A DNA stretch of 43,878 bases from a virus (lineage: Duplodnaviria > Heunggongvirae > Uroviricota > Caudoviricetes), in the IMG/VR virus record IMGVR_UViG_2778261538_000001. One strand, 5' to 3'. This document shows, in pieces, positions 5,763 to 22,149 of the stretch (position 1 is its first letter; each line of letters opens with the position of its first letter). The notes under the pieces are model-generated. The model was not told where the DNA came from. It made no database searches and worked only from the letters and a program-made list of their open reading frames with translations. The translations under genes and the position numbers were made by a program.

Positions 5763-5766
5763 AAGT

Positions 5767-6510
5767 TTACAAATACTTTACATTTACCGCTATAAGAGAA
5801 TAATCGTCAGTCGGGCCTTTTGTCTCTATTCTTCGCATTAGGCTGGAGGCAAACCTTGATGCGGTTGACAATGTACGGTAAGAAAATCGTGGGCGTTGCT
5901 CCCAAAAGGTATGCGCGCCATCAGACATGATGAATAGAGATAGAACACCATCGTCAAGAGGAAGTTCATCTTTATCAATATTTATGACTTGATGTTGAAG
6001 GGGGATCTTGGCAGCAAGTGCAGTTGTAATAATATTTTTACCTTTTGCATTTTTGAGCTGTCGAGCTGTATAAATACCGCTATCTATCAACATTTGATGT
6101 TGAGTATGATCTGTTGTTAATTGGATTAGCTTATTTCCATTTTTTAAATAAACACGACAGTCACCTACATGTATAATTGTTAGACCTTGATTGTGAAGTA
6201 GGCACATTGTTAAAGTTGTAGCAGCAGATGCTAATTCTTTATCAACTGACGAAAGAGATGCCACCTTTTCTTGTAGGGTCTTAAGTAAGGATAAGACATT
6301 GTCTTCATGAGTGAAGCTGTCTTTAATACTATACAAATGATTTATTACTGCTGCAGATGCTTCTTTTCCTCCTTTATAACCACCAACCCCATCAGCTATA
6401 GCCATAAGATAACCATTTGGTGTTTGAAGTGGATAAAGCACGCTATCTTGATTTTCCCTGCCATTATGTTTTGGTACAGAAAATATGGATGATGAGAGTA
6501 TGCTAATCAT
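5767..6510 (-). CDS. PP2C-family Ser/Thr protein phosphatase, 247 aa
   Basis: Motifs AIADGVGG, HVGDCRVY and FIMSDGAH in the translation; overlaps kinase stop by 4 nt; AT-rich. Confidence 0.8.
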   Translation of the reverse strand: MISILSSSIFSVPKHNGRENQDSVLYPLQTPNGYLMAIADGVGGYKGGKEASAAVINHLYSIKDSFTHEDNVLSLLKTLQEKVASLSSVDKELASAATTLTMCLLHNQGLTIIHVGDCRVYLKNGNKLIQLTTDHTQHQMLIDSGIYTARQLKNAKGKNIITTALAAKIPLQHQVINIDKDELPLDDGVLSLFIMSDGAHTFWEQRPRFSYRTLSTASRFASSLMRRIETKGPTDDYSLIAVNVKYL

Positions 6511-7232
6511 AAGCGTTTCAACTCCAATTCCTCAAAGATCTGCTCTACGGTCAGGAATCTTTTGTTAAGTTGTCTATGCGTACATTTGTTTATTATATCA
6601 TCAAAACCATCAATATTTAATTCTTCAATTAAAATACCAATTGAATATATATCTGATTGTTTTGAATATCCGTTGAGGAAAACGTTGTAATCAAAGTATT
6701 TAGGAGTAGCGGGGTATTGGCCAATTTGTGTTAATAGCTGTGTATTGGCATCTGGTGACACATTTTTTGCAAGGCCGAAGTCAGATAACTTATAAATTCC
6801 ATCTTTAAATTTTAGTACATTTAGTGGTTTTATATCCCGATGAAGATATCCTTTCTTATGAATCCATCCGACGGCATTTAGTACCATTTTTACAATAGAG
6901 ATTTTTTCAGCCTTTGTAAGAGTTCCACTTTTTATTTCTTCTTCAAGATTTGTTTCTGCTAGTTCCATTACGAACCAAGGCTGAGCATTCTGTAAGTGGC
7001 ATATGAATATTTGGACAATATTAGTATGCAGGCATTCAGTTTGATATCTTACTTCTCGTTCAAATCTGGTAAAGAGTTCAGGATCTGTTGCATCAGGTCG
7101 TAAAATTTTTCTGGCATATAGACCACAAATTTTTCTTTGTGAGTTATATAACCTTATTTTTTCTACAAGGCCAAAACCGCCAGAACCAATTACTTCTAGG
7201 GGTTCTATTAGGTAATTCCCACGTTCTTCCAT
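6507..7232 (-). CDS. Minimal Hanks-type Ser/Thr protein kinase, 241 aa
   Basis: Gly-rich loop GSGGFG, conserved Lys (YARK), catalytic loop HRDIKPLN, DFG motif (LSDFGLAK); AT-rich; directly downstream of cI. Confidence 0.85.
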   Translation of the reverse strand: MEERGNYLIEPLEVIGSGGFGLVEKIRLYNSQRKICGLYARKILRPDATDPELFTRFEREVRYQTECLHTNIVQIFICHLQNAQPWFVMELAETNLEEEIKSGTLTKAEKISIVKMVLNAVGWIHKKGYLHRDIKPLNVLKFKDGIYKLSDFGLAKNVSPDANTQLLTQIGQYPATPKYFDYNVFLNGYSKQSDIYSIGILIEELNIDGFDDIINKCTHRQLNKRFLTVEQIFEELELKRL

Positions 7233-7327
7233 TGTTCATCCTTTTAAGTTAGACAAAAGGAAAAATATAATGCAATGTTATCGATGCTTTTTTGAAGCCA
7301 AAGTTAACTTGTTGAATTTATGTCGAA

Positions 7328-8017
7328 TTATCCATGCTTCCTATACGTCTGCGGCATGCTCCCGATGACTTTCCCGAAGATGAATACCCGGTTCATCTCG
7401 TCTTTCTCGATTGGGTCCCACGGTGAGTAGCTCTTGTTATCAGAGATAACCAGCAGTTTATCCTTCATCATTTGCAGGCGCTTTACATGGGCTGTGTCGT
7501 CGTACAGAAACGCATAGATACCATCACCGTCGAAAGATTTAACCGTGATATCAACGAACAGCAGATCACCTGGTTCGATCGTTCCTGACATGCTGTCACC
7601 GCGTACGTTAATGATACGGATATTTTCCGCCTTCCTGCCATCGAACATGTGACGAGCATCGTCAAACGAATACTCAACCGAACGTAGAACTTCTACAAAC
7701 TCACGGTTGATGACTCCCGGCCCGGCACTCACTTCGATATCAAGAACGTCAATCTTAAAGTATTTGGAATGGCTGACAGTTGTTTGTATTGGTTGCACTG
7801 TACTGTCTGACATATTTCCAACGCCAGAAGATAACCATTCTGCGCGCACACCCAAAGCGTTCGCGATCTCCACGATTTTAGTTGTTTGGTTAGCTTTCCC
7901 TGTTTCGATTTTCTGAATAGCTGCTTGGCTAACCCCGACCAAATCCCCAAGCGCCTTTTGTGTAAGGCCTCGCGCTAATCTGGCTTCTTTAAGTCTTTCT
8001 GAGAGTGTTGTTTTCAT
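7328..8017 (-). CDS. cI: CI-type prophage repressor (HTH plus LexA-like S24 autopeptidase domain), 229 aa from ATG at 8017
   Basis: N-terminal HTH (LTQKALGDLVGVSQAAIQKIETG), C-terminal GDSM and VKRL Ser/Lys dyad motifs; divergent from cro. Confidence 0.85.
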   Translation of the reverse strand: MKTTLSERLKEARLARGLTQKALGDLVGVSQAAIQKIETGKANQTTKIVEIANALGVRAEWLSSGVGNMSDSTVQPIQTTVSHSKYFKIDVLDIEVSAGPGVINREFVEVLRSVEYSFDDARHMFDGRKAENIRIINVRGDSMSGTIEPGDLLFVDITVKSFDGDGIYAFLYDDTAHVKRLQMMKDKLLVISDNKSYSPWDPIEKDEMNRVFIFGKVIGSMPQTYRKHG

Positions 8018-11041: not shown

Positions 11042-11374
11042 ATGAATCCTTATATTTATCTTGGTGGTGCAATACTTGCAGAGGTCATTGGTACAACCTT
11101 AATGAAGTTTTCAGAAGGTTTTACACGGTTATGGCCATCTGTTGGTACAATTATTTGTTATTGTGCATCATTCTGGTTATTAGCTCAGACGCTGGCTTAT
11201 ATTCCTACAGGGATTGCTTATGCTATCTGGTCAGGAGTCGGTATTGTCCTGATTAGCTTACTATCATGGGGATTTTTCGGCCAACGGTTGGACCTGCCAG
11301 CCATTATAGGCATGATGTTGATTTGTGCCGGTGTGTTGGTTATTAATTTATTGTCACGAAGCACACCACATTAA
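11042..11374 (+). CDS. emrE: SMR-family multidrug efflux transporter EmrE, 110 aa
   Basis: Translation from MNPYIYLGGAILAEVIGTTLMKFSEGFTRLWPSVGT... matches E. coli EmrE; start chosen at ATG 11042. Confidence 0.93.
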   Translation: MNPYIYLGGAILAEVIGTTLMKFSEGFTRLWPSVGTIICYCASFWLLAQTLAYIPTGIAYAIWSGVGIVLISLLSWGFFGQRLDLPAIIGMMLICAGVLVINLLSRSTPH

Positions 11375-11629: not shown

Positions 11630-13156
11630 ATGAAAAAAGCCATAGCATATATGCGATTTTCATCACCAGGTCAGATGTCTGGTGATTCATTAAACCGCCA
11701 GAGAAGGCTTATTACTGAATGGCTAAAGGTAAATAGTGATTATTACCTTGATACCGTAACGTATGAAGATTTGGGGTTAAGCGCATTCAATGGAAAGCAT
11801 GCACAATCAGGAGCTTTTTCGGAATTTTTAGATGCTATAGAACATGGTTATATATTGCCAGGGACTACATTGTTAGTTGAAAGTCTGGACAGACTTTCAA
11901 GAGAAAAAGTCGGTGAAGCGATTGAGCGTCTGAAATTGATTTTGAATCACGGTATTGATGTTATAACTCTTTGCGATAATACAGTCTATAATATTGACTC
12001 ATTGAATGAGCCATATTCATTAATAAAAGCCATACTTATAGCACAAAGGGCAAATGAAGAAAGCGAGATAAAGTCAAGTCGGGTTAAATTATCATGGAAG
12101 AAAAAACGGCAGGATGCACTGGAGTCAGGCACGATTATGACGGCTTCTTGTCCGAGATGGCTCTCATTGGATGACAAAAGAACGGCTTTTGTTCCAGACC
12201 CCGACAGGGTGAAAACTATTGAGCTAATTTTTAAACTCAGGATGGAAAGGCGCTCATTGAATGCAATAGCCAAGTATTTAAATGATCATGCTGTAAAGAA
12301 TTTCTCAGGAAAAGAAAGTGCATGGGGACCTTCTGTAATTGAAAAATTATTAGCGAATAAAGCTCTGATAGGTATATGCGTACCTTCATATCGTGCAAGA
12401 GGCAAAGGGATAAGTGAAATCGCTGGCTATTATCCCAGAGTCATATCAGATGATTTGTTTTACGCTGTACAGGAAATTCGGTTGGCACCTTTTGGTATTA
12501 GCAATAGTAGCAAGAATCCTATGCTAATAAATCTACTTCGAACAGTTATGAAGTGTGAGGCTTGTGGTAATACCATGATTGTTCATGCGGTATCTGGAAG
12601 TTTGCATGGCTATTATGTTTGTCCGATGAGAAGATTACATCGATGTGACAGACCATCAATAAAAAGAGATTTGGTTGATTATAATATCATTAATGAATTG
12701 CTTTTTAATTGTAGCAAAATTCAACCAGTTGAAAACAAGAAAGATGCTAATGAAACTTTAGAGTTAAAAATTATTGAGCTTCAGATGAAAATTAATAATT
12801 TAATCGTTGCATTGTCTGTCGCGCCTGAAGTTACCGCTATAGCAGAGAAAATAAGACTATTAGATAAGGAATTACGAAGGGCTTCGGTATCATTAAAAAC
12901 TTTGAAGAGTAAAGGGATGAGTTCACTTGGTGATTTTCATGCTATTGATTTAACCAGTAAAAATGGGCGAGAGCTATGTCGTACACTTGCCTATAAAATA
13001 TTCGAAAAAATTATAATTAATACAGATAATAAAACCTGTGATATCTATTTTATGAATGGCATTGTTTTTAAACACTATCCTTTAATGAAAGTAATATCCG
13101 CCCAGCAGGCGATAAGTACTCTTAAATATATGGTTGATGGTGAGATTTATTTTTGA
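11630..13156 (+). CDS. Large serine recombinase (resolvase/invertase catalytic domain plus recombinase and zinc-ribbon domains), 508 aa; YbcK-like
   Basis: N-terminal YMRFSSPGQ catalytic-serine motif; Cys cluster CEACGN...YYVCPMRRLHRCD; very AT-rich. Confidence 0.8.
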   Translation: MKKAIAYMRFSSPGQMSGDSLNRQRRLITEWLKVNSDYYLDTVTYEDLGLSAFNGKHAQSGAFSEFLDAIEHGYILPGTTLLVESLDRLSREKVGEAIERLKLILNHGIDVITLCDNTVYNIDSLNEPYSLIKAILIAQRANEESEIKSSRVKLSWKKKRQDALESGTIMTASCPRWLSLDDKRTAFVPDPDRVKTIELIFKLRMERRSLNAIAKYLNDHAVKNFSGKESAWGPSVIEKLLANKALIGICVPSYRARGKGISEIAGYYPRVISDDLFYAVQEIRLAPFGISNSSKNPMLINLLRTVMKCEACGNTMIVHAVSGSLHGYYVCPMRRLHRCDRPSIKRDLVDYNIINELLFNCSKIQPVENKKDANETLELKIIELQMKINNLIVALSVAPEVTAIAEKIRLLDKELRRASVSLKTLKSKGMSSLGDFHAIDLTSKNGRELCRTLAYKIFEKIIINTDNKTCDIYFMNGIVFKHYPLMKVISAQQAISTLKYMVDGEIYF

Positions 13157-13478
13157 GTAATAATCACTTTTTCAACCGTGCTATGGTATGAAAGTAAAGT
13201 AACTAATATGATATTAACTATCTTGAACGAAGCGCCCTGAGCTATAGTTTTACTATAGGCACTGCCACTGGATGTTGGCATTCTTGCTCTAGTAGCTCAA
13301 CAATACCCAATCACAAAACAATTCACTGATAACAAACTTTGTGCACGTGCTTGGTTATGGCGAACAGGTGATGTTAACCTCTTGCCTGAATGCCACTCCA
13401 CTTCATTAAGTATCTGAGCACCGAGAGGCTGGTCACGCCCCCATTAAAAATAATTTCTTTTGAATCGAGTGAAATAGG

Positions 13479-13505
13479 TTAGCCCGCATAAGTGCGGGCT
13501 GCTTT
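13479..13505 (+). terminator. Stem-loop terminator (AGCCCGCA-taag-TGCGGGCT then GCTTTTT)
   Basis: Perfect 8-bp stem with T-run on the plus strand; abuts the 3' end of the minus-strand esterase gene. Confidence 0.5.
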
Positions 13506-14549
13506 TTACAGGTCAGCGTTTGTTTTTTGTTGTTGGGTAGCGGTTTTTATGGGGGTTCCCAGGTTTTTAGTAAACCACTCAACAACTCTGTTTATAATAA
13601 TTGGCTGATACCATGTATTATCGCCATGCTCAGCCCCTTCTACCAGAACGTACTCAGCGTTATCGCCGTTCTTCTTCAACATCCTGAATAGTTTGGCGCT
13701 TTGCTCAGGTGAAACCAGAGTGTCTTTGCTACCATGCATAATAAGAAATGGGGGTTTTACTCCTTTCATATGTCCGATTGGACTGGCGTTTAGCGCTTTT
13801 TCTTTTGACGCTGTTATGGGGGCTCCCGCAAAACTTCTGAATGCAGGGCCATTGATCATTAAGGCTTCGGTTACGGCAGGAGATCGATGAACCTCCTGCA
13901 CTGATTCAGGGAACCCCTCGCCAATATTCAACAAGTCAGAAATCCCATAAAGTGTGGCAACTGCCTGAACATCTGCTGATTGCTGAAGAAAGTCACCTTT
14001 ATTAAAGGTTTTGTCACCATTTGTAGTTCCCATCATCTGGGCAAGCCATCCACCGGCAGAGTCACCCAGAACTCCGATTCTTTGAGGATCAATCCCATAA
14101 TCGCTGGCATGTTCTCTCAAGTAACGTATTGCAGCTTTCCCATCCTCAACTGGTGCTGGAAATGTATCAGGAATTGTTCTGTATTCTACAGCGGCCACAA
14201 CAAAACCAGCTTCAGCCAGAGCCATTCTCATTTCAATAAATTTGTCATGTTCAGAAGACATGAATCCGCCGCCGGGATAATAAATAATGGCTGGTTTTAA
14301 ATCATTTGTTCGCGGGACAAGAACTGACATGTGAAGCTGTCTGACAGAACGAGTTCCTTTTATCTGGGAATAAACAACATCACCAATGAGATCGACCTGG
14401 TTTCTGGTGGGTGAAACACTAATGATATCTGCACCCGGGGTGTAACCAGGAAGATTAGTCTGGACAGGTGTTGCACAACTCCCGACCGACATGGCCATTG
14501 ACATACCATACAATAGTGTTGCAGATGATAATATCTTGTTAATTTTCAT
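13506..14549 (-). CDS. Secreted alpha/beta-hydrolase (esterase/lipase family) with N-terminal signal peptide, 347 aa
   Basis: GDSAGG nucleophile elbow, YYPGGGF oxyanion-hole-like motif, hydrophobic N-terminus ending ...SVGSC (possible lipobox). Confidence 0.8.
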   Translation of the reverse strand: MKINKILSSATLLYGMSMAMSVGSCATPVQTNLPGYTPGADIISVSPTRNQVDLIGDVVYSQIKGTRSVRQLHMSVLVPRTNDLKPAIIYYPGGGFMSSEHDKFIEMRMALAEAGFVVAAVEYRTIPDTFPAPVEDGKAAIRYLREHASDYGIDPQRIGVLGDSAGGWLAQMMGTTNGDKTFNKGDFLQQSADVQAVATLYGISDLLNIGEGFPESVQEVHRSPAVTEALMINGPAFRSFAGAPITASKEKALNASPIGHMKGVKPPFLIMHGSKDTLVSPEQSAKLFRMLKKNGDNAEYVLVEGAEHGDNTWYQPIIINRVVEWFTKNLGTPIKTATQQQKTNADL

Positions 14550-14996
14550 GTTTTACATGCCTTGACTTATCGGATGAAATTCTCTTACTGAATTTAACGG
14601 CAGTTTAATAGCAGTACAACTCGTGGTAGCTAGGGAAATATCCCAGTCGTGGTTAAGGTTGTACTTGACGGCTATTATTTCAACAATGCTTAAAGTGAGA
14701 GCTTAAGGTTATGCGTATGTTTTACAGTCCGAGTAGATTCTGACCAATAGCTTCTTTGTATAATTCTGTCAGAAATAAATCTTGGCTTGCATGAAGTTTG
14801 AGACCTTATCTTGTTTGATTATGAATAATCAATTCGCCATAATTGTATCACCGGAGCCTGAACAACTCCTGTGACTTCTGCGCTAAACGGGGACGTTTAT
14901 GCGCACATACAATCCAACCTATCTTCTCCATTCACAGATGCAGAAATGCACCTGCGATTTTTTGCATCCAGCGTTTGGCCTCTGCGGAGGTGAATC

Positions 14997-15452
14997 GTGA
15001 ACCTCCCACAAGATGGCATCAAATTGCATCGCGGCAACTTCACCGCTTTCGGCCAGCAGATCCAGCCTTATCTGGAGGACGGAAAATGCTTTCGCATGGT
15101 GCTTAAACCGTGGCGTGAGAAACGCAGTCTTTCCCAGAATGCACTCAGCCATATGTGGTACAGCGAAATCAGTGAATACCTCATCAGCAGGGGGAAATCG
15201 TTCGCTACCGCAGCATGGGTAAAAGATGCTCTCAAACACACATACCTCGGTTATGAAACCAAGGACCTGGTTGATGTCGTAACCGGCGAAATCACTACTA
15301 TCCAGTCGTTACGCCATACCTCCGATCTTGATACCGGAGAGATGTATGTCTTCCTGTGTAAGGTTGAAGCTTGGGCGATGAATATTGGCTGCCACCTGAC
15401 TATTCCGCAGCGCTGCGAGTTCCAGCTGCTGCGCGACAAGCAGGAGGCGTAA
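14997..15452 (+). CDS. NinB-family recombination protein (YbcN-like), 151 aa, GTG start
   Basis: Translation [15 protein letters not shown]... matches DLP12 YbcN as I recall it; GGAGG RBS at 14986. Confidence 0.75.
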
Positions 15453-17058: not shown

Positions 17059-18141
17059 TTAGAACTGATAAACCAGACCTACAGCGACGATGTCGTCGGT
17101 ATCAATACCAGCTGTTTTGGTAAACTTACTATCGTCAATTAAGTTGATTTTGTAATCAACAAAAGTGGACATGTTTTTATTAAAGTAGTAAGTAGCACCG
17201 ACATCGACATACTTGACTAAGTCTCGGTCACCATGAACACCAAGGTCTTTACCTTTTGACTGAAGGTAAGCAACAGATGGTCGCAGACCGAAGTCAAACT
17301 GATATTGTGCTACTGCTTCAAAGTTTTGTGCTTTGTTTGCAATATGGTTATTACCAAAAACGGTCATATTCTGAGTTTCAGAATATGTGGTAGCCAGATA
17401 GATATTGTTCGCATCATATTTCAGGCCTGCAGCCCATACTTCCGCATTTTTGCCGGAGGCATTGAATTTGCTCTTACCATAGGCGACCTGACCGTCAGTG
17501 CGATCTGATTTAGCATAGGTTGCACCCACGCCGAATCCTTCATACTCATAAGTAGTGGAGAAACCGAAACCATCACCATTGGCTTCAGTTACGTCAGTGC
17601 GGTCATTTTTACCCTGATACTGAGCAGCAAAGTTCAGGCCATCGACCAGACCAAAGAAGTCGTTGTTACGATAAGTTGCAACACCAGTAGTGCGACCAGT
17701 CATGAACACATCTGTTTGGGTCCAGGTATCACCACCGAATTCTGGCAGGACGTCAGTCCACGCACCGATGTCGTATGCTACACCGTAGTTACGGCCGTAA
17801 TCGATTGAGCCGTAATCACCAAATTTCAGGCCTGCAAATGCAAGACGGGTTTTGTCTTTGGAAGAACCTTGAGATTCAGCACGGTTGCCTTTGAATTCAT
17901 ATTCCCACTGACCGAAACCAGTCAGTTGATCGTTGATTTGGGTTTCACCTTTGAAGCCAAGACGGGCATAAGTAGTATCACCATCATCTGCATCATTAGA
18001 GGAGAAGTAGTGCTTGGCATTAACTTTCCCGTATAGATCCAGCTTGTTACTGTCTTTATTATAAATTTCAGCTGCCTGAGCAGACATCGCCATCAGTACT
18101 GATGCAGCTACAGCAGAAATTGCCACTGTTAATTTTTTCAT
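17059..18141 (-). CDS. nmpC: OmpC/OmpF-family general porin (NmpC/Lc type), intact, with signal peptide, 360 aa
   Basis: Signal peptide ending [12 protein letters not shown]-terminal ...VGLVYQF terminal Phe, typical 16-strand porin; antisense to late operon. Confidence 0.93.
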
Positions 18142-19443: not shown

Positions 19444-19898
19444 ACAGAGTAACCGCGATTATCTCCGCTCTGGTTATCTGCATCATCGTCTGCCTGTCAT
19501 GGGCTGTTAATCATTACCGTGATAACGCCATTACCTACAAAGCCCAGCGCGACAAAAATGCCAGAGAACTGAAGCTGGCGAACGCGGCAATTACTGACAT
19601 GCAGATGCGTCAGCGTGATGTAGCAGAACTCGACGCCAGATACACAAAGGAGCTTGCTGATGCTAACGCGACTATCGAAAGTCTTCGTGCTGATGTTTCT
19701 GCTGGGCGTAAGCGCCTGCAAGTCGCCGCCACCTGTGCAAAGTCAACGACCGGAGCCAGCAGCATGGGCGATGGAGAAAGCCCAAGACTTACAGCAGATG
19801 CTGAACTCAATTATTACCGTCTCCGAAGTGGAATCGACAAGATAACCGCGCAGGTCAACTACCTGCAGGAGTACATCAGGACGCAGTGCTTAAAATAA
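19440..19898 (+). CDS. Rz i-spanin, 152 aa
   Basis: N-terminal TM helix plus coiled-coil periplasmic domain; ATG overlaps endolysin stop. Confidence 0.85.
19654..19845 (+). CDS. Rz1 o-spanin lipoprotein embedded in the +1 frame of Rz, 63 aa
   Basis: Signal peptide with lipobox-like ...LLGVSAC then Pro-rich mature region ([13 protein letters not shown]). Confidence 0.7.
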
Positions 19899-19936
19899 TT
19901 TTAATTTCACTGAAATTTTATACGTGACTTTCAGGA

Positions 19937-19965
19937 AAATGCCTCGCAGATGCGGGGCATTTTTG
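19937..19965 (+). terminator. Rho-independent terminator after the lysis cassette
   Basis: GCCTCGCA-ga-TGCGGGGC stem-loop followed by ATTTTT. Confidence 0.55.
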
Positions 19966-20314
19966 TACAGGTATTTCACCGCGCACCGGAGCGCACTCAA
20001 CCACGTCGAACCAAACCCTTTGGAATGAGCCTTTGAGTAGTCAGTTAGTGCTGGTGAGCCTTGACGGGCTGATCTCCTATGCAGCAAAGGTTCATCACAA
20101 AGTAAGGCGAACGCTATGACAAACCAAGATTCTATAGACCTATCTGATCTTCGTGGAATGGTCAGTTTTCCAGACAAAAGGTAATCACCATAGTCGTATG
20201 GCTATGAATCTTGTTGCTGCAGATAAGCATTTTGTGATTGAAGTGGTCAAATCTCTCAAATGCAGTAAAATGCAGTGCGCTATAATTCAATAACGGAGGG
20301 AGTAAGGAGAAGTC

Positions 20315-20935
20315 ATGAAAGATCAAGATGTTAGGTTCGCGGTGCATCATAAGCTTTTGAAAGAATCGCATTTAGATCCAGACTGTCTTGTGGTCGATGA
20401 ATTTTCCATATCCCTTGGCGCCAGTAGAGCAGACATTGCTGTAATAAATGGTGTTATACACGGGTACGAGCTCAAAAGTGAATATGACTCTTTGGAGCGT
20501 TTGCCTCTTCAAATCAAGCATTATTCTTCTGTAATGGACAAGGTTACTCTTGTCGTAGCTGAGAAACACCTTGAGGGAGCATTAAAGTTAATCCCAGGTT
20601 GGTGGGGCGTTAAAACGGTTTCTGTTGGGCCAAAAGGCGCCATTCTTATAAAGCACATGCGTGGAGAAAAGCTTAATCGAAACCATGACACATTGATGCT
20701 CGCTCAATTGCTTTGGAAAGATGAATGTATCGACGTACTTGAACGATGGGGCTATTCCAAAGGAATCAAAAGCAAGCCCCGATTTGAGTTATGGAATATT
20801 ATTGCGGAAAATATTCCAATAGCGAATCTCAGGCTTGAAGTCAGAACAGCCTTAAAGAAACGCGTAGGCTGGAAAGTTAAGGCTTGGCAGGCTGAGTCTG
20901 CGCCAACCAATAAAGCTGTCTCACGACTAACGTAA
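20315..20935 (+). CDS. PD-(D/E)xK-like protein (possibly sce7726 family), 206 aa
   Basis: Motif VVDEF...RADIAV...GYELKSE (D...D...E-x-K) in the N-terminal half; AT-rich; convergent with and overlapping its partner. Confidence 0.6.
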   Translation: MKDQDVRFAVHHKLLKESHLDPDCLVVDEFSISLGASRADIAVINGVIHGYELKSEYDSLERLPLQIKHYSSVMDKVTLVVAEKHLEGALKLIPGWWGVKTVSVGPKGAILIKHMRGEKLNRNHDTLMLAQLLWKDECIDVLERWGYSKGIKSKPRFELWNIIAENIPIANLRLEVRTALKKRVGWKVKAWQAESAPTNKAVSRLT

Positions 20936-21944
20936 TATGGTGCGTATGTGCAACTTTACGCCATTCTTTAGAGCCGCCAGATTTGTTAGCGCCTAATGAT
21001 CTTTGGTAAATGTAATCATCCCCCCAACTAAATTTGGAGCCAAAGACTTGATACTCTGGCGAACTAACAAGGGTAGTACATAAGTTTTTAGTTTGGCCCC
21101 ATCCATTTCCTTTAACTGCGGTACCTTTTACAAAGATCCATGAGGTATCGTTCGAATATCTCACTGAGACATACTGAGACATGAAGCGTGGGTCTACGCT
21201 CGTAATGGTAGAGCTAGCGGTGGGATAATCACTAAAACTTGGCGTTCTTCCATTGCTAAAATTCTGTACTACGTACATCCAAAGATCGTATTCATGGCGC
21301 GGAATATGATGAACTTGATGTTGCGGTATCCCTGCCTGTGATGCCGGGTATGCGGTTGAAGATAAAATCAAGTTTCTCCACGGAGCTTGGCCTGATAATG
21401 TGTTGACCATGCTTAATGCTTGTTGTTTTAAACTATCAGTTGCGTTTTGAATATCTCCAAAATCAATGATTACATCAATTAAACTAGGATGAATATTTAA
21501 GTGGTTAACCAGACTTGTGAATTGGTGCCATGTCTGGGGGGTGATAGATATAGCGAGCCCATTGATTAAGTTGCGTTGAACAGCATGTATATAGTTTGTT
21601 GAATATGCGGGAGAAACAACAGGGATAATTTCCTTACCATTTACTCTAGCATCTTGGATACACATATCTAGAGGATGATGGCGGCTCGAACCATGTTTAT
21701 CTAAATATTTAACATCCAGCAAAACAGGACGATTGGCTTTCCAGGATGCCGCAAGGTTAATACCGAAGTCAGATAAGTAAGAACTCAAACTCTTCTTGTA
21801 GCATTCGTTTTCATAATCCCAGTCTATGTCTGGAATGGTAATGATCGGAGTAAAACCAGAGAGCGTAGTTTGATCTAAAAGCATCAGAGATTCATATTCA
21901 GCAGGCTTCCATTTCAGCTGTGGATAATATTGATGTTGACTCAT
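20877..21944 (-). CDS. Uncharacterised 355-aa protein, partner of the PD-(D/E)xK-like gene (possibly sce7725 / beta-protein family)
   Basis: Long AT-rich ORF convergent with 20315..20935, 59-nt 3' overlap; no catalytic motif recognised. Confidence 0.6.
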   Translation of the reverse strand: MSQHQYYPQLKWKPAEYESLMLLDQTTLSGFTPIITIPDIDWDYENECYKKSLSSYLSDFGINLAASWKANRPVLLDVKYLDKHGSSRHHPLDMCIQDARVNGKEIIPVVSPAYSTNYIHAVQRNLINGLAISITPQTWHQFTSLVNHLNIHPSLIDVIIDFGDIQNATDSLKQQALSMVNTLSGQAPWRNLILSSTAYPASQAGIPQHQVHHIPRHEYDLWMYVVQNFSNGRTPSFSDYPTASSTITSVDPRFMSQYVSVRYSNDTSWIFVKGTAVKGNGWGQTKNLCTTLVSSPEYQVFGSKFSWGDDYIYQRSLGANKSGGSKEWRKVAHTHHITLVVRQLYWLAQTQPAKP

Positions 21945-22149
21945 TAAAACTCCTTAAAATCTTTACTTATCCTAAGTATAGTGTTATGGCGTAACGCCAA
22001 TTGTTTTTATACACTTGAAAACATTGGGAAAAGTTGAGCTATATCTAAATTTACAAAATTGGATGTTATAGAAATCGAGGTTTCAACTAGGCATGGAACT
22101 GCAAAATTTTTAATGCCTGCACGCGAAAGTCGTTGGCGGGTCCTTTCCG

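Follow-up and report, generated by a model that had tools for sequence, protein, structure and literature searches.

A DLP12/lambda-like prophage of Escherichia coli carries a moron gene for a predicted exported esterase related to the ferulate esterases of Dickeya

Introduction

BD-FAE (PDB 6TKX/6XYC), the founder of Pfam family PF20434, comes from a Bacteroidetes xylan polysaccharide utilization locus, and is a bifunctional (acetyl and feruloyl) esterase that frees acetate from birchwood xylan and has a Ser128/Asp237/His269 triad (PMC8165983). The FaeD and FaeT proteins of Dickeya are described as feruloyl esterases assigned to CE10, of which FaeD is secreted by the Out type II secretion system (PMC9007343, PMC10319131). 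Here we describe a relative of these enzymes that is carried by a virus, an esterase gene at positions 13506–14549 (minus strand) of record IMGVR_UViG_2778261538_000001, a DLP12/lambda-like prophage of Escherichia coli; the window below is the whole 43,878-nucleotide stretch that was analysed, and all coordinates refer to it. The esterase is a lysogenic-conversion (moron) gene of this prophage, and its product is an alpha/beta-hydrolase serine esterase whose activity is predicted.

The reading that we favour, with a probability of a little over one half (about 0.55), is that this moron is transcribed in the lysogen and encodes an envelope hydroxycinnamoyl (feruloyl or chlorogenate-type) esterase, with this activity being a prediction; the lipidation, localisation and substrate of the protein, and any benefit to the host, are what we infer from the comparisons below. 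Annotations of 'alpha/beta hydrolase' or 'esterase' already exist for this gene in hundreds of genomes and in several phage records, and it has a PHROG of its own; a literature search on accession WP_001535299 gave no match and found no paper characterising the E. coli protein. The present analysis adds the placement of the protein in the feruloyl-esterase branch, its relatives' linkage to phenolic acid decarboxylase genes, the clade-specific lipobox, the limits of the cargo cassette, the alternative terminators, and the expression in the lysogen, which is drawn from published data.

Family, fold and catalytic residues

The coding sequence (CDS) is an uninterrupted open reading frame (ORF) of 347 codons with an ATG start, exactly as called in an earlier reading of the DNA letters (the original prediction), which had proposed a secreted esterase/lipase-like hydrolase with a GDSAGG nucleophile. 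Pfam searches with the protein match PF20434 (BD-FAE) with E=3.2e-44 (151.4 bits against a gathering threshold of 26.8, profile positions 7–214 of 215) and Abhydrolase_3 with E=9e-23, and it also matches PHROG 3341 'esterase' with E=2.6e-129. The best sequence match of known structure is 6nkf (Lip_vut4, from a goat-rumen metagenome; phmmer against the PDB, E=1e-36), followed by the GH43-CE protein 6mly and then by BD-FAE (6xyc/6tkx), and the GDS*GG serine, the HG..D..V aspartate and the GA.HG histidine are all matched in these alignments. The AlphaFold2 model (pLDDT, the predicted local distance difference test, 82.4; pTM, the predicted template modelling score, 0.81) has an alpha/beta-hydrolase core, and a Foldseek search with it has 6nkf as the top match (TM score 0.83) and returns BD-FAE and other esterases, at probability 1.00.

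The catalytic residues are readily located on the minus strand. The nucleophile elbow G162-D-S164-A-G-G167 is encoded at 14049–14066 (Ser164 codon 14058–14060), the triad acid Asp276 (HGSKD276TLV) at 13722–13724, and the triad base His308 (GAEH308GD) at 13626–13628, and each of the three aligns with its catalytic counterpart in 6nkf and 6xyc. The oxyanion-hole loop P92-G-G-G-F96 is encoded at 14262–14276, and has a PGGG box in place of the HGGG of classical hormone-sensitive lipase (HSL) esterases. In an alignment of 50 homologues S164, D276, H308 and all five residues P92-G93-G94-G95-F96 are invariant, and GDSAGG sits inside an invariant block; the alignment that had been suggested as a check on an inactive triad thus finds Ser-Asp-His intact throughout. 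Because of the family and structure matches and the invariant triad, we regard GDSAGG as a real catalytic elbow and not as a chance hexapeptide.

BD-FAE shares the family, the aligned triad and the alpha/beta-hydrolase core with the window protein but only about 24% amino acid identity, and the window protein has an additional N-terminal beta-hairpin region (residues ~33–80) and a C-terminal tail. Lip_vut4 is closer (33% identity, TM 0.83, GDS(S/A)GG, with the same Asp and His positions), although no signal peptide region is included in the alignment. The chromosomal Aes protein of E. coli, a member of HSL family IV, has a similar GDSAG-type nucleophile elbow and a shared Abhydrolase_3 match, but is cytoplasmic and has an HGGG box, whereas the window protein has a PGGG box and a signal peptide. 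Membership of the classical HSL family IV/Aes group was considered and rejected in view of the PGGG box with its invariant P92 and of NCBIfam scores far below cut-off, the GTSAG, GESAG and GCSAG HSL models giving 32–55 bits (cut-offs 380–430) and the Aes model 57.9 bits (cut-off 389). We also note that the C-terminus (13506–13530) has the form A-x-L, ADL here and ANL, ASL, ARL or AKL in homologues; at least 90% of homologues, from different proteobacterial classes, keep the final Leu, and the motif follows a variable, low-confidence linker.

Export signal and lipobox

A signal peptide (residues 1–24) and a lipobox cysteine, Cys25, with Ala at +2, are encoded at 14475–14549 (minus strand), with the Cys25 codon, TGT, at 14475–14477. 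The N-terminus reads MKINKILSSATLLYGMSMAMSVGS-C25-ATPV, and has two Lys residues and a 17-residue hydrophobic core. It fits the lipobox pattern of PROSITE (PS00013), position 25 being the Cys, residues 1–28 are disordered in the AlphaFold2 model (pLDDT <50), and every one of the 44 IMG/VR phage alleles has Cys25; the proposal of a signal peptide, possibly that of a lipoprotein, is well supported by these features. Under the Lol sorting rule of E. coli, lipoproteins with Asp at +2 stay in the inner membrane; the Ala found here at that position therefore predicts sorting to the outer membrane. The esterase is thus probably exported and lipid-anchored. Sec would be the export route, with lipidation at Cys25 and then outer-membrane sorting, and export would place the Ser164-Asp276-His308 esterase in the cell envelope, whether at the outer membrane or in the periplasm.

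The lipobox has a restricted distribution. Cys25 is kept in nearly all of the E. coli cluster members among those listed, in E. marmotae, and in two sister clades (..STGC..), and a lipobox was seen in 4 of the 121 sequences scanned. The orthologues of Dickeya, Pantoea, Klebsiella, Kluyvera, Rhizobium and others have signal peptides of the signal peptidase I (SPase I) type without the cysteine, and the lipobox is therefore an innovation of the Escherichia-associated clade. Rare C25Y alleles, each arising by a single G-to-A change, are present in the E. coli clade (P0001) and in the sister clades (P0004 and P0157), and would yield a non-lipidated form.

Relationship to Dickeya esterases and linkage to padC

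By sequence the window protein is a member of the Pfam BD-FAE family and of the FaeD/FaeT group. Dickeya aquatica 174/2 encodes two proteins annotated as 'Ferulate esterase', SLM61953 (343 amino acids, GDSAGG), which shares 65% identity with the window protein over 327 residues, and SLM61950 (328 amino acids, GASAGG), which shares 46%. Their genes are 3 kb apart, and that of SLM61950 adjoins a divergent LysR gene. A published orthologue table gives faeD as DAQ1742_00888 and faeT as DAQ1742_00893 (PMC8386352 supplement), and from the order of locus tags, accessions and coordinates, together with the LysR neighbour, SLM61950 would be FaeD and SLM61953 would be FaeT. The Dickeya proteins share with the window protein the BD-FAE/Abhydrolase_3 family and an N-terminal signal peptide, and the FaeT-labelled protein is of the same length and has the conserved C-terminus. 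They differ in being chromosomally encoded parts of a plant cell-wall degrading arsenal with SPase I-type signal peptides lacking the lipobox Cys, whereas the window esterase is prophage cargo in a gut or extraintestinal E. coli and is probably lipid-anchored.

More broadly, homologues at 55–74% identity are chromosomal genes of plant-associated and gut Proteobacteria, the former including Dickeya, Pectobacterium, Pantoea, Erwinia, Kosakonia, Rhizobium/Agrobacterium, leaf Sphingomonas, Methylobacterium and Azospirillum, and the latter Klebsiella, Sutterella and Desulfovibrio. The two closest lineages, P0002 (80% identity) and P0005 (74%), are on E. coli-type contigs, and in both a gene for a phenolic acid decarboxylase of family PF05870 (padC) directly precedes the esterase gene, at a distance of 17–34 bp, with a divergent LysR regulator at the locus. 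Eleven of 80 species-representative loci share this padC-esterase order, across Alpha- and Gammaproteobacteria, with padC-linked loci in Serratia, Symbiopectobacterium, Mangrovibacter, Acinetobacter, Aeromonas, Azospirillum, Martelella and one unclassified proteobacterial metagenome-assembled genome; Erwinia tracheiphila has a fragmented copy of the arrangement. LysR and PadC are the sole neighbours that recur across lineages. A padC gene directly upstream of the esterase is what would be expected if the esterase frees ferulic, p-coumaric or caffeic acid, which the decarboxylase consumes.

The three-gene arrangement of LysR, phenolic acid decarboxylase and BD-FAE esterase is seen at L006 5514–8047, L011 1315–2889 and within L022–L073 (11 loci), and the L006 module adjoins two further COesterase-family genes and Fe-alcohol dehydrogenase genes. 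We know of no description of this module in the literature, and it may be an uncharacterised operon for the detoxification of hydroxycinnamate esters. Its esterase is orthologous to the window protein, at 57–80% identity, but the prophage cassette differs from the modules in having no remnant of padC or LysR. The DNA homology to the padC-linked relatives is limited to the esterase CDS and about 10 nt upstream of the ATG, and the esterase CDS alone was taken up by the prophage.

The original prediction left the substrate unspecified, and the homology to FaeT and FaeD and the padC linkage narrow it, conditionally, to hydroxycinnamoyl esters. Because the enzyme is probably periplasm-facing, porin-permeant esters are the likely substrates; those small enough for the periplasm would include simple alkyl ferulates, chlorogenic acid, and arabinose or oligosaccharides esterified with feruloyl or p-coumaroyl groups. 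Hydrolysis would release the phenolic acid and a sugar or quinate moiety.

The protein could instead be chiefly a carbohydrate O-acetyl esterase, similar to acetyl-xylan or pectin acetyl esterases, that deacetylates dietary or host oligosaccharides in the periplasm for use by the lysogen. The action of BD-FAE on birchwood xylan (PMC8165983) is in keeping with this, as are the activities of the PDB relatives 6xyc, 6tkx, 6mly and 6a6o, which are acetyl or carbohydrate esterases, and weak NCBIfam matches to PaeX and AxeA1. These matches are well below their cut-offs, however (47 against 550 for PaeX, and 41 against 700 for AxeA1), the closest named relatives are ferulate esterases, and the neighbour conserved across lineages is a phenolic acid decarboxylase rather than a sugar-utilisation gene. 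We consider an O-acetyl esterase unlikely, albeit with a real chance of being right. The enzyme is in the BD-FAE, or former 'CE10', group of carbohydrate-type esterases. A hydroxycinnamoyl esterase may itself have a side activity on acetyl esters.

Expression in the lysogen

Expression can be followed in the Perceval prophage of the adherent-invasive E. coli (AIEC) strain LF82, which is not the strain of the window, using S1 Table of PMC9928086, a re-analysis of GSE154648 in which values are given as log2(fpkm+5), where fpkm is fragments per kilobase per million, with a detection floor of 2.32. Two of the samples, B1 and B6, contain bacteria only, whereas MB1 and MB6 represent bacteria within THP1 macrophages, with MB6 at 6 h post-infection. 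Perceval is 98.3% identical to the window over 13300–15000, and has the same order of large serine recombinase, alpha/beta hydrolase (antisense) and NinB genes.

The 'alpha/beta hydrolase' gene (PERCE_52/LF82_159) has values of 4.38/4.13 in stationary-phase lysogeny broth (LB), 6.92/7.19 in B1, 5.07/5.09 in B6, 6.98/7.30 in MB1 and 6.12/6.27 in MB6 (PMC9928086). The corresponding values for ninB are 2.32/2.32, 2.72/3.05, 2.95/2.77, 4.59/4.05 and 5.15/5.43, and those for ninE, ybcO and rusA are 2.32–2.58 in the bacteria-only samples and at most 4.04 in macrophages (PMC9928086). The raw B1 counts show the same pattern, with 1650 and 1665 for the hydrolase, 10–17 for ninB and 54–61 for the recombinase (PMC9928086). 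Transcription of the esterase gene, in its Perceval allele, thus proceeds from the repressed prophage and varies with conditions, with the neighbouring nin genes near the floor in bacteria-only samples, and the expectation that it would be expressed in the lysogen is borne out. The emrE, nmpC and bor genes are also expressed in the Perceval lysogen, and the Q antiterminator gene is unexpectedly high, reaching log2 10.8 in macrophages (PMC9928086). Transcription of the esterase in the repressed prophage is independent of the lytic operon, and in lytic growth the gene should be shut off by convergent antiterminated transcription.

These data bear on a further alternative, that the protein is a lipase or a short-chain carboxylesterase of broad range that attacks xenobiotic esters or the lipids of the host or of membranes, and serves as an envelope virulence or fitness factor in macrophages. 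The best structural match, 6nkf, was deposited as a lipase, the family and the HSL-type esterases overlap, the gene is common in extraintestinal pathogenic E. coli (ExPEC) of sequence type 131 (ST131) and in AIEC LF82, and PERCE_52 is higher in macrophages (MB6) than in LB, with a log2 fold change of 2.26 (q=2.7e-13; PMC9928086). However, the Perceval allele is equally high in the bacteria-only B1 sample, and thus the induction is not macrophage-specific; the HSL subfamily models are far under their cut-offs, and the relatives are mostly from plant-associated bacteria. We regard a carboxylesterase or lipase of this type as quite unlikely, and a hydroxycinnamoyl esterase is preferred.

The prophage cargo cassette

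The prophage has the gene order int-xis ... exo-bet-gam ... cI-cro-cII-O-P-ren-emrE-ybcK followed by the esterase gene, and to the right of this are ylcH-ybcN(ninB)-ninE-ybcO-rusA-ylcG-quuD, an antisense ompC/nmpC-type porin gene, and the lysis and structural genes. The esterase gene, on the minus strand, lies between ybcK and the ylcH/ybcN/ninE/rusA/quuD genes, all on the plus strand, and is thus antisense to the early-right genes as first described. A blastn comparison with E. coli K-12 (NC_000913) shows that homology to DLP12 stops at 13195 and resumes at 14814, such that the 1618-bp segment at 13196–14813 is a cargo cassette replacing the K-12 DLP12 genes ybcL-ybcM. The ybcL and ybcM products are unrelated to the esterase, and their genes, which share its insertion slot between ybcK and ylcH/ybcN, are on the plus strand in K-12, the opposite orientation to the antisense esterase gene.

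A smaller core, 13439–14791, moves as one unit, comprising 242 bp upstream of the gene, the CDS and a downstream hairpin; it is the sole segment in common with a prophage of Escherichia sp. MOD1-EC7003 (L016 4759–6438). In MOD1-EC7003 essentially all that is left of a decayed prophage at the lambda attachment region, between bioA and ybhC, is the esterase cassette joined to emrE, and the esterase ORF is intact at 96% identity, which suggests that the cargo was kept after the phage genes were lost. The esterase is a dispensable insert between conserved phage genes and is absent from close relatives, and its proposed status as a prophage moron is supported by the exchangeable cassette and by its carriage on isolated temperate phages. 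In being expressed in lysogens it resembles other accessory genes of this prophage family (bor/iss, nmpC/ompC and emrE), and especially bor and nmpC, which are likewise antisense lambdoid morons expressed in Perceval lysogens. The NanS-p 9-O-acetyl-sialate esterases of Stx prophages, which we take to be of another fold and family, are alike in concept only, as prophage esterases that may open esterified gut substrates to E. coli; no sialate O-acetylesterase family was recognised among the Pfam matches of the window protein.

The esterase could conceivably serve the phage, for example by removing O-acetyl groups from O-antigen, peptidoglycan or a receptor for superinfection exclusion, lysis or adsorption, and its predicted envelope location, its carriage by active temperate phages, and the presence of a porin gene and a candidate defence pair in the same prophage are compatible with such a role. 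Nevertheless the gene runs counter to the lytic transcripts, its expression is seen in the repressed prophage, it is absent from closely related functional and cryptic lambdoid phages that have ybcL-ybcM instead, its orthologues are ordinary chromosomal genes at non-phage loci, and it is kept in a decayed prophage, and we find service to the phage very improbable.

Distribution and selection

The esterase CDS is present in 672 of 5426 complete E. coli genomes (12%), at 95–100% identity and almost always on the chromosome; 2842 genomes match a 1.7-kb query of the gene and its flanks at least in part. The carriers include O25b:H4-ST131, where it is in the same slot, and AIEC LF82 (prophage Perceval). 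Eight deposited temperate-phage records carry it, among them 4A7, 4C10, D2, 1W, 3W, PhiR47_2 and Perceval, and in IMG/VR there are 44 viral contigs with the esterase at 97–100% identity and two others with distant relatives. This distribution is consistent with an essentially single acquisition by the phage lineage. A lipobox-bearing paralogue with 79% identity, P0003 (L009 515–7229), is located near a gene for a serine protease autotransporter of Enterobacteriaceae (Peptidase_S6) and a PerC-family gene; this is an island- or plasmid-like E. coli context, and the esterase has therefore been mobilised on more than one kind of element.

That the gene is a neutral or decaying passenger without function in E. 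coli is scarcely credible, since in spite of occasional truncated or stop-containing copies and the rare C25Y variants, 43 of the 44 viral alleles are intact with the full triad, the ratio of nonsynonymous to synonymous substitution (dN/dS) between Escherichia alleles is 0.11–0.12, indicating purifying selection, and the gene is both widespread in complete genomes and transcribed.

Signals flanking the gene

A GC-rich hairpin with an 8-bp stem is located at 13480–13501, 5 nt past the esterase stop codon (−16.7 kcal/mol, z=−2.7). The gene had been credited with its own terminator hairpin, and while the hairpin is real, its U-tract in this allele is on the opposite strand: the U5 tract is on the plus strand, a terminator scan scores a plus-strand terminator, and the tail on the esterase strand is AACCUAUUUCAC, with no U-tract. 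The hairpin of the window, AGCCCGCA-CTTA-TGCGGGCT, is present in 18 of the 44 phage alleles (window 13440–13505 compared with L097–L140), and the other 26 have at the same position the GC hairpin GGGAGGGC-TAA-GCCCTCCC, followed by a T-rich tail on the esterase strand. The two versions are unrelated, with an A5 tract upstream in both, and it looks as if one (bidirectional) terminator has been swapped for another. Because two unrelated hairpins occupy one position, a (bidirectional) terminator would seem to be functionally required past the esterase stop. The 13480–13501 hairpin would stop or insulate emrE/ybcK transcripts, and would also cap the esterase mRNA.

The best candidate sigma-70 promoter is weak and is located at 14591–14619 on the minus strand (−35 TTGTAC at 14614–14619, a 17-nt spacer, and −10 TAAATT at 14591–14596), about 42 nt before the ATG. 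Its hexamers are conserved in MOD1-EC7003 (L016) and in all 44 phage alleles, and its position weight matrix (PWM) score of 10.9 is within the range of shuffled sequences (median 9.7, 95th percentile 13.3). An extended −10, TGaTACAAT (14842–14849), was not adopted, as it lies outside the cassette in backbone common with K-12. An AAGG ribosome-binding site, read from the sequence, is at 14560–14563 on the minus strand, 10 nt before the esterase ATG. A minimal ORF, ATG TAA (14553–14558), is situated between this and the esterase start, 3 nt before the ATG; it is identical in 44 of 44 phage alleles, the MOD1-EC7003 copy has CAA in place of TAA, and it may be there by chance. An Rfam scan (E<=1) found no RNA element in 13000–15200.

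Other cargo of the prophage

The window contains several other cargo genes. These include emrE (11042–11374), encoding a small multidrug resistance efflux pump, ybcK (11630–13156), in the early-right region, encoding a 508-residue large serine recombinase, and an antisense ompC/nmpC-type porin gene (17059–18141). An overlapping convergent gene pair at 20315–21944, where related prophages have bor/iss, encodes a 206-residue protein matching the PADLOC candidate 'cll' (E=4e-31) and a 355-residue protein with matches to Beta_protein PF14350 (E=8e-56) and to a PD-Lambda-2_C-like profile (E=4e-32), and is probable anti-phage defence cargo. The KC-Dl-1 prophage (L001), which matches at 100%, is not fully collinear with the window, with differences in the immunity region (5763–7328) and the post-lysis region (19444–22136); these, which are outside the nin region, reflect the usual lambdoid mosaicism.

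Implications for the biology of E. coli lysogens

Several observations weigh against an envelope hydroxycinnamoyl esterase expressed in the lysogen. First, Gly at the −2 position of the lipobox is atypical, and cleavage by SPase I (S-C-A|T) is a possible alternative to lipobox processing. Secondly, the substrate is a prediction for every Escherichia allele, and BD-FAE is bifunctional, with other members of the family named as lipases or acetyl-xylan esterases. Hassan and Hugouvieux-Cotte-Pattat reportedly characterised the FaeD and FaeT enzymes of Dickeya in 2011, and their abstract is said to call FaeT cytoplasmic, which is odd given its evident signal peptide; the feruloyl activity of the relative with 65% identity is taken from secondary citations and that abstract. 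Thirdly, 68 of the 80 orthologue loci have no padC link, and there is neither a padC nor any other phenolic-acid gene, nor a padC or LysR remnant, in the window. Fourthly, a consensus scan of the minus strand at 14550–14990 found no significant sigma-70 promoter, with the best PWM site being that within the shuffle range, and PERCE_52 in stationary-phase LB is at 2.7 times the prophage median, under the 5-fold cut-off used for morons (PMC9928086), which accounts for its absence from Table 1 of that paper.

If the activity is other than we propose, then the gene is an ordinary, already annotated accessory esterase. If the hydroxycinnamoyl esterase activity is correct, it supplies a concrete candidate gene for an old strain-dependent phenotype of E. 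coli, the presumed source of which is reportedly Couteau et al. in 2001. A passage of PMC10340781 cites cinnamoyl/chlorogenic-acid esterase activity in some human colonic E. coli isolates, with three strains mentioned. It is possible, if doubtful, that the prophage esterase is the determinant of this strain-variable activity. Were it so, about 12% of sequenced E. coli, with ST131 and LF82 included, would carry a trait that phages can transmit, the freeing of bioactive hydroxycinnamic acids from esters in the diet, and the Escherichia lineage would have turned a soluble, secreted enzyme of the plant-pathogen type into an outer-membrane lipoprotein.

Pandemic ST131 strains commonly have the gene, as does AIEC LF82, where it is transcribed, at a higher level in macrophages than in LB. 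With the proposed activity, a hydrolase of plant-phenolic esters would be spread by a temperate phage through E. coli of the gut and of extraintestinal sites, and lysogeny would be tied to the metabolism of dietary polyphenols through the release of ferulate and caffeate, and possibly to the scavenging of the sugar moieties.

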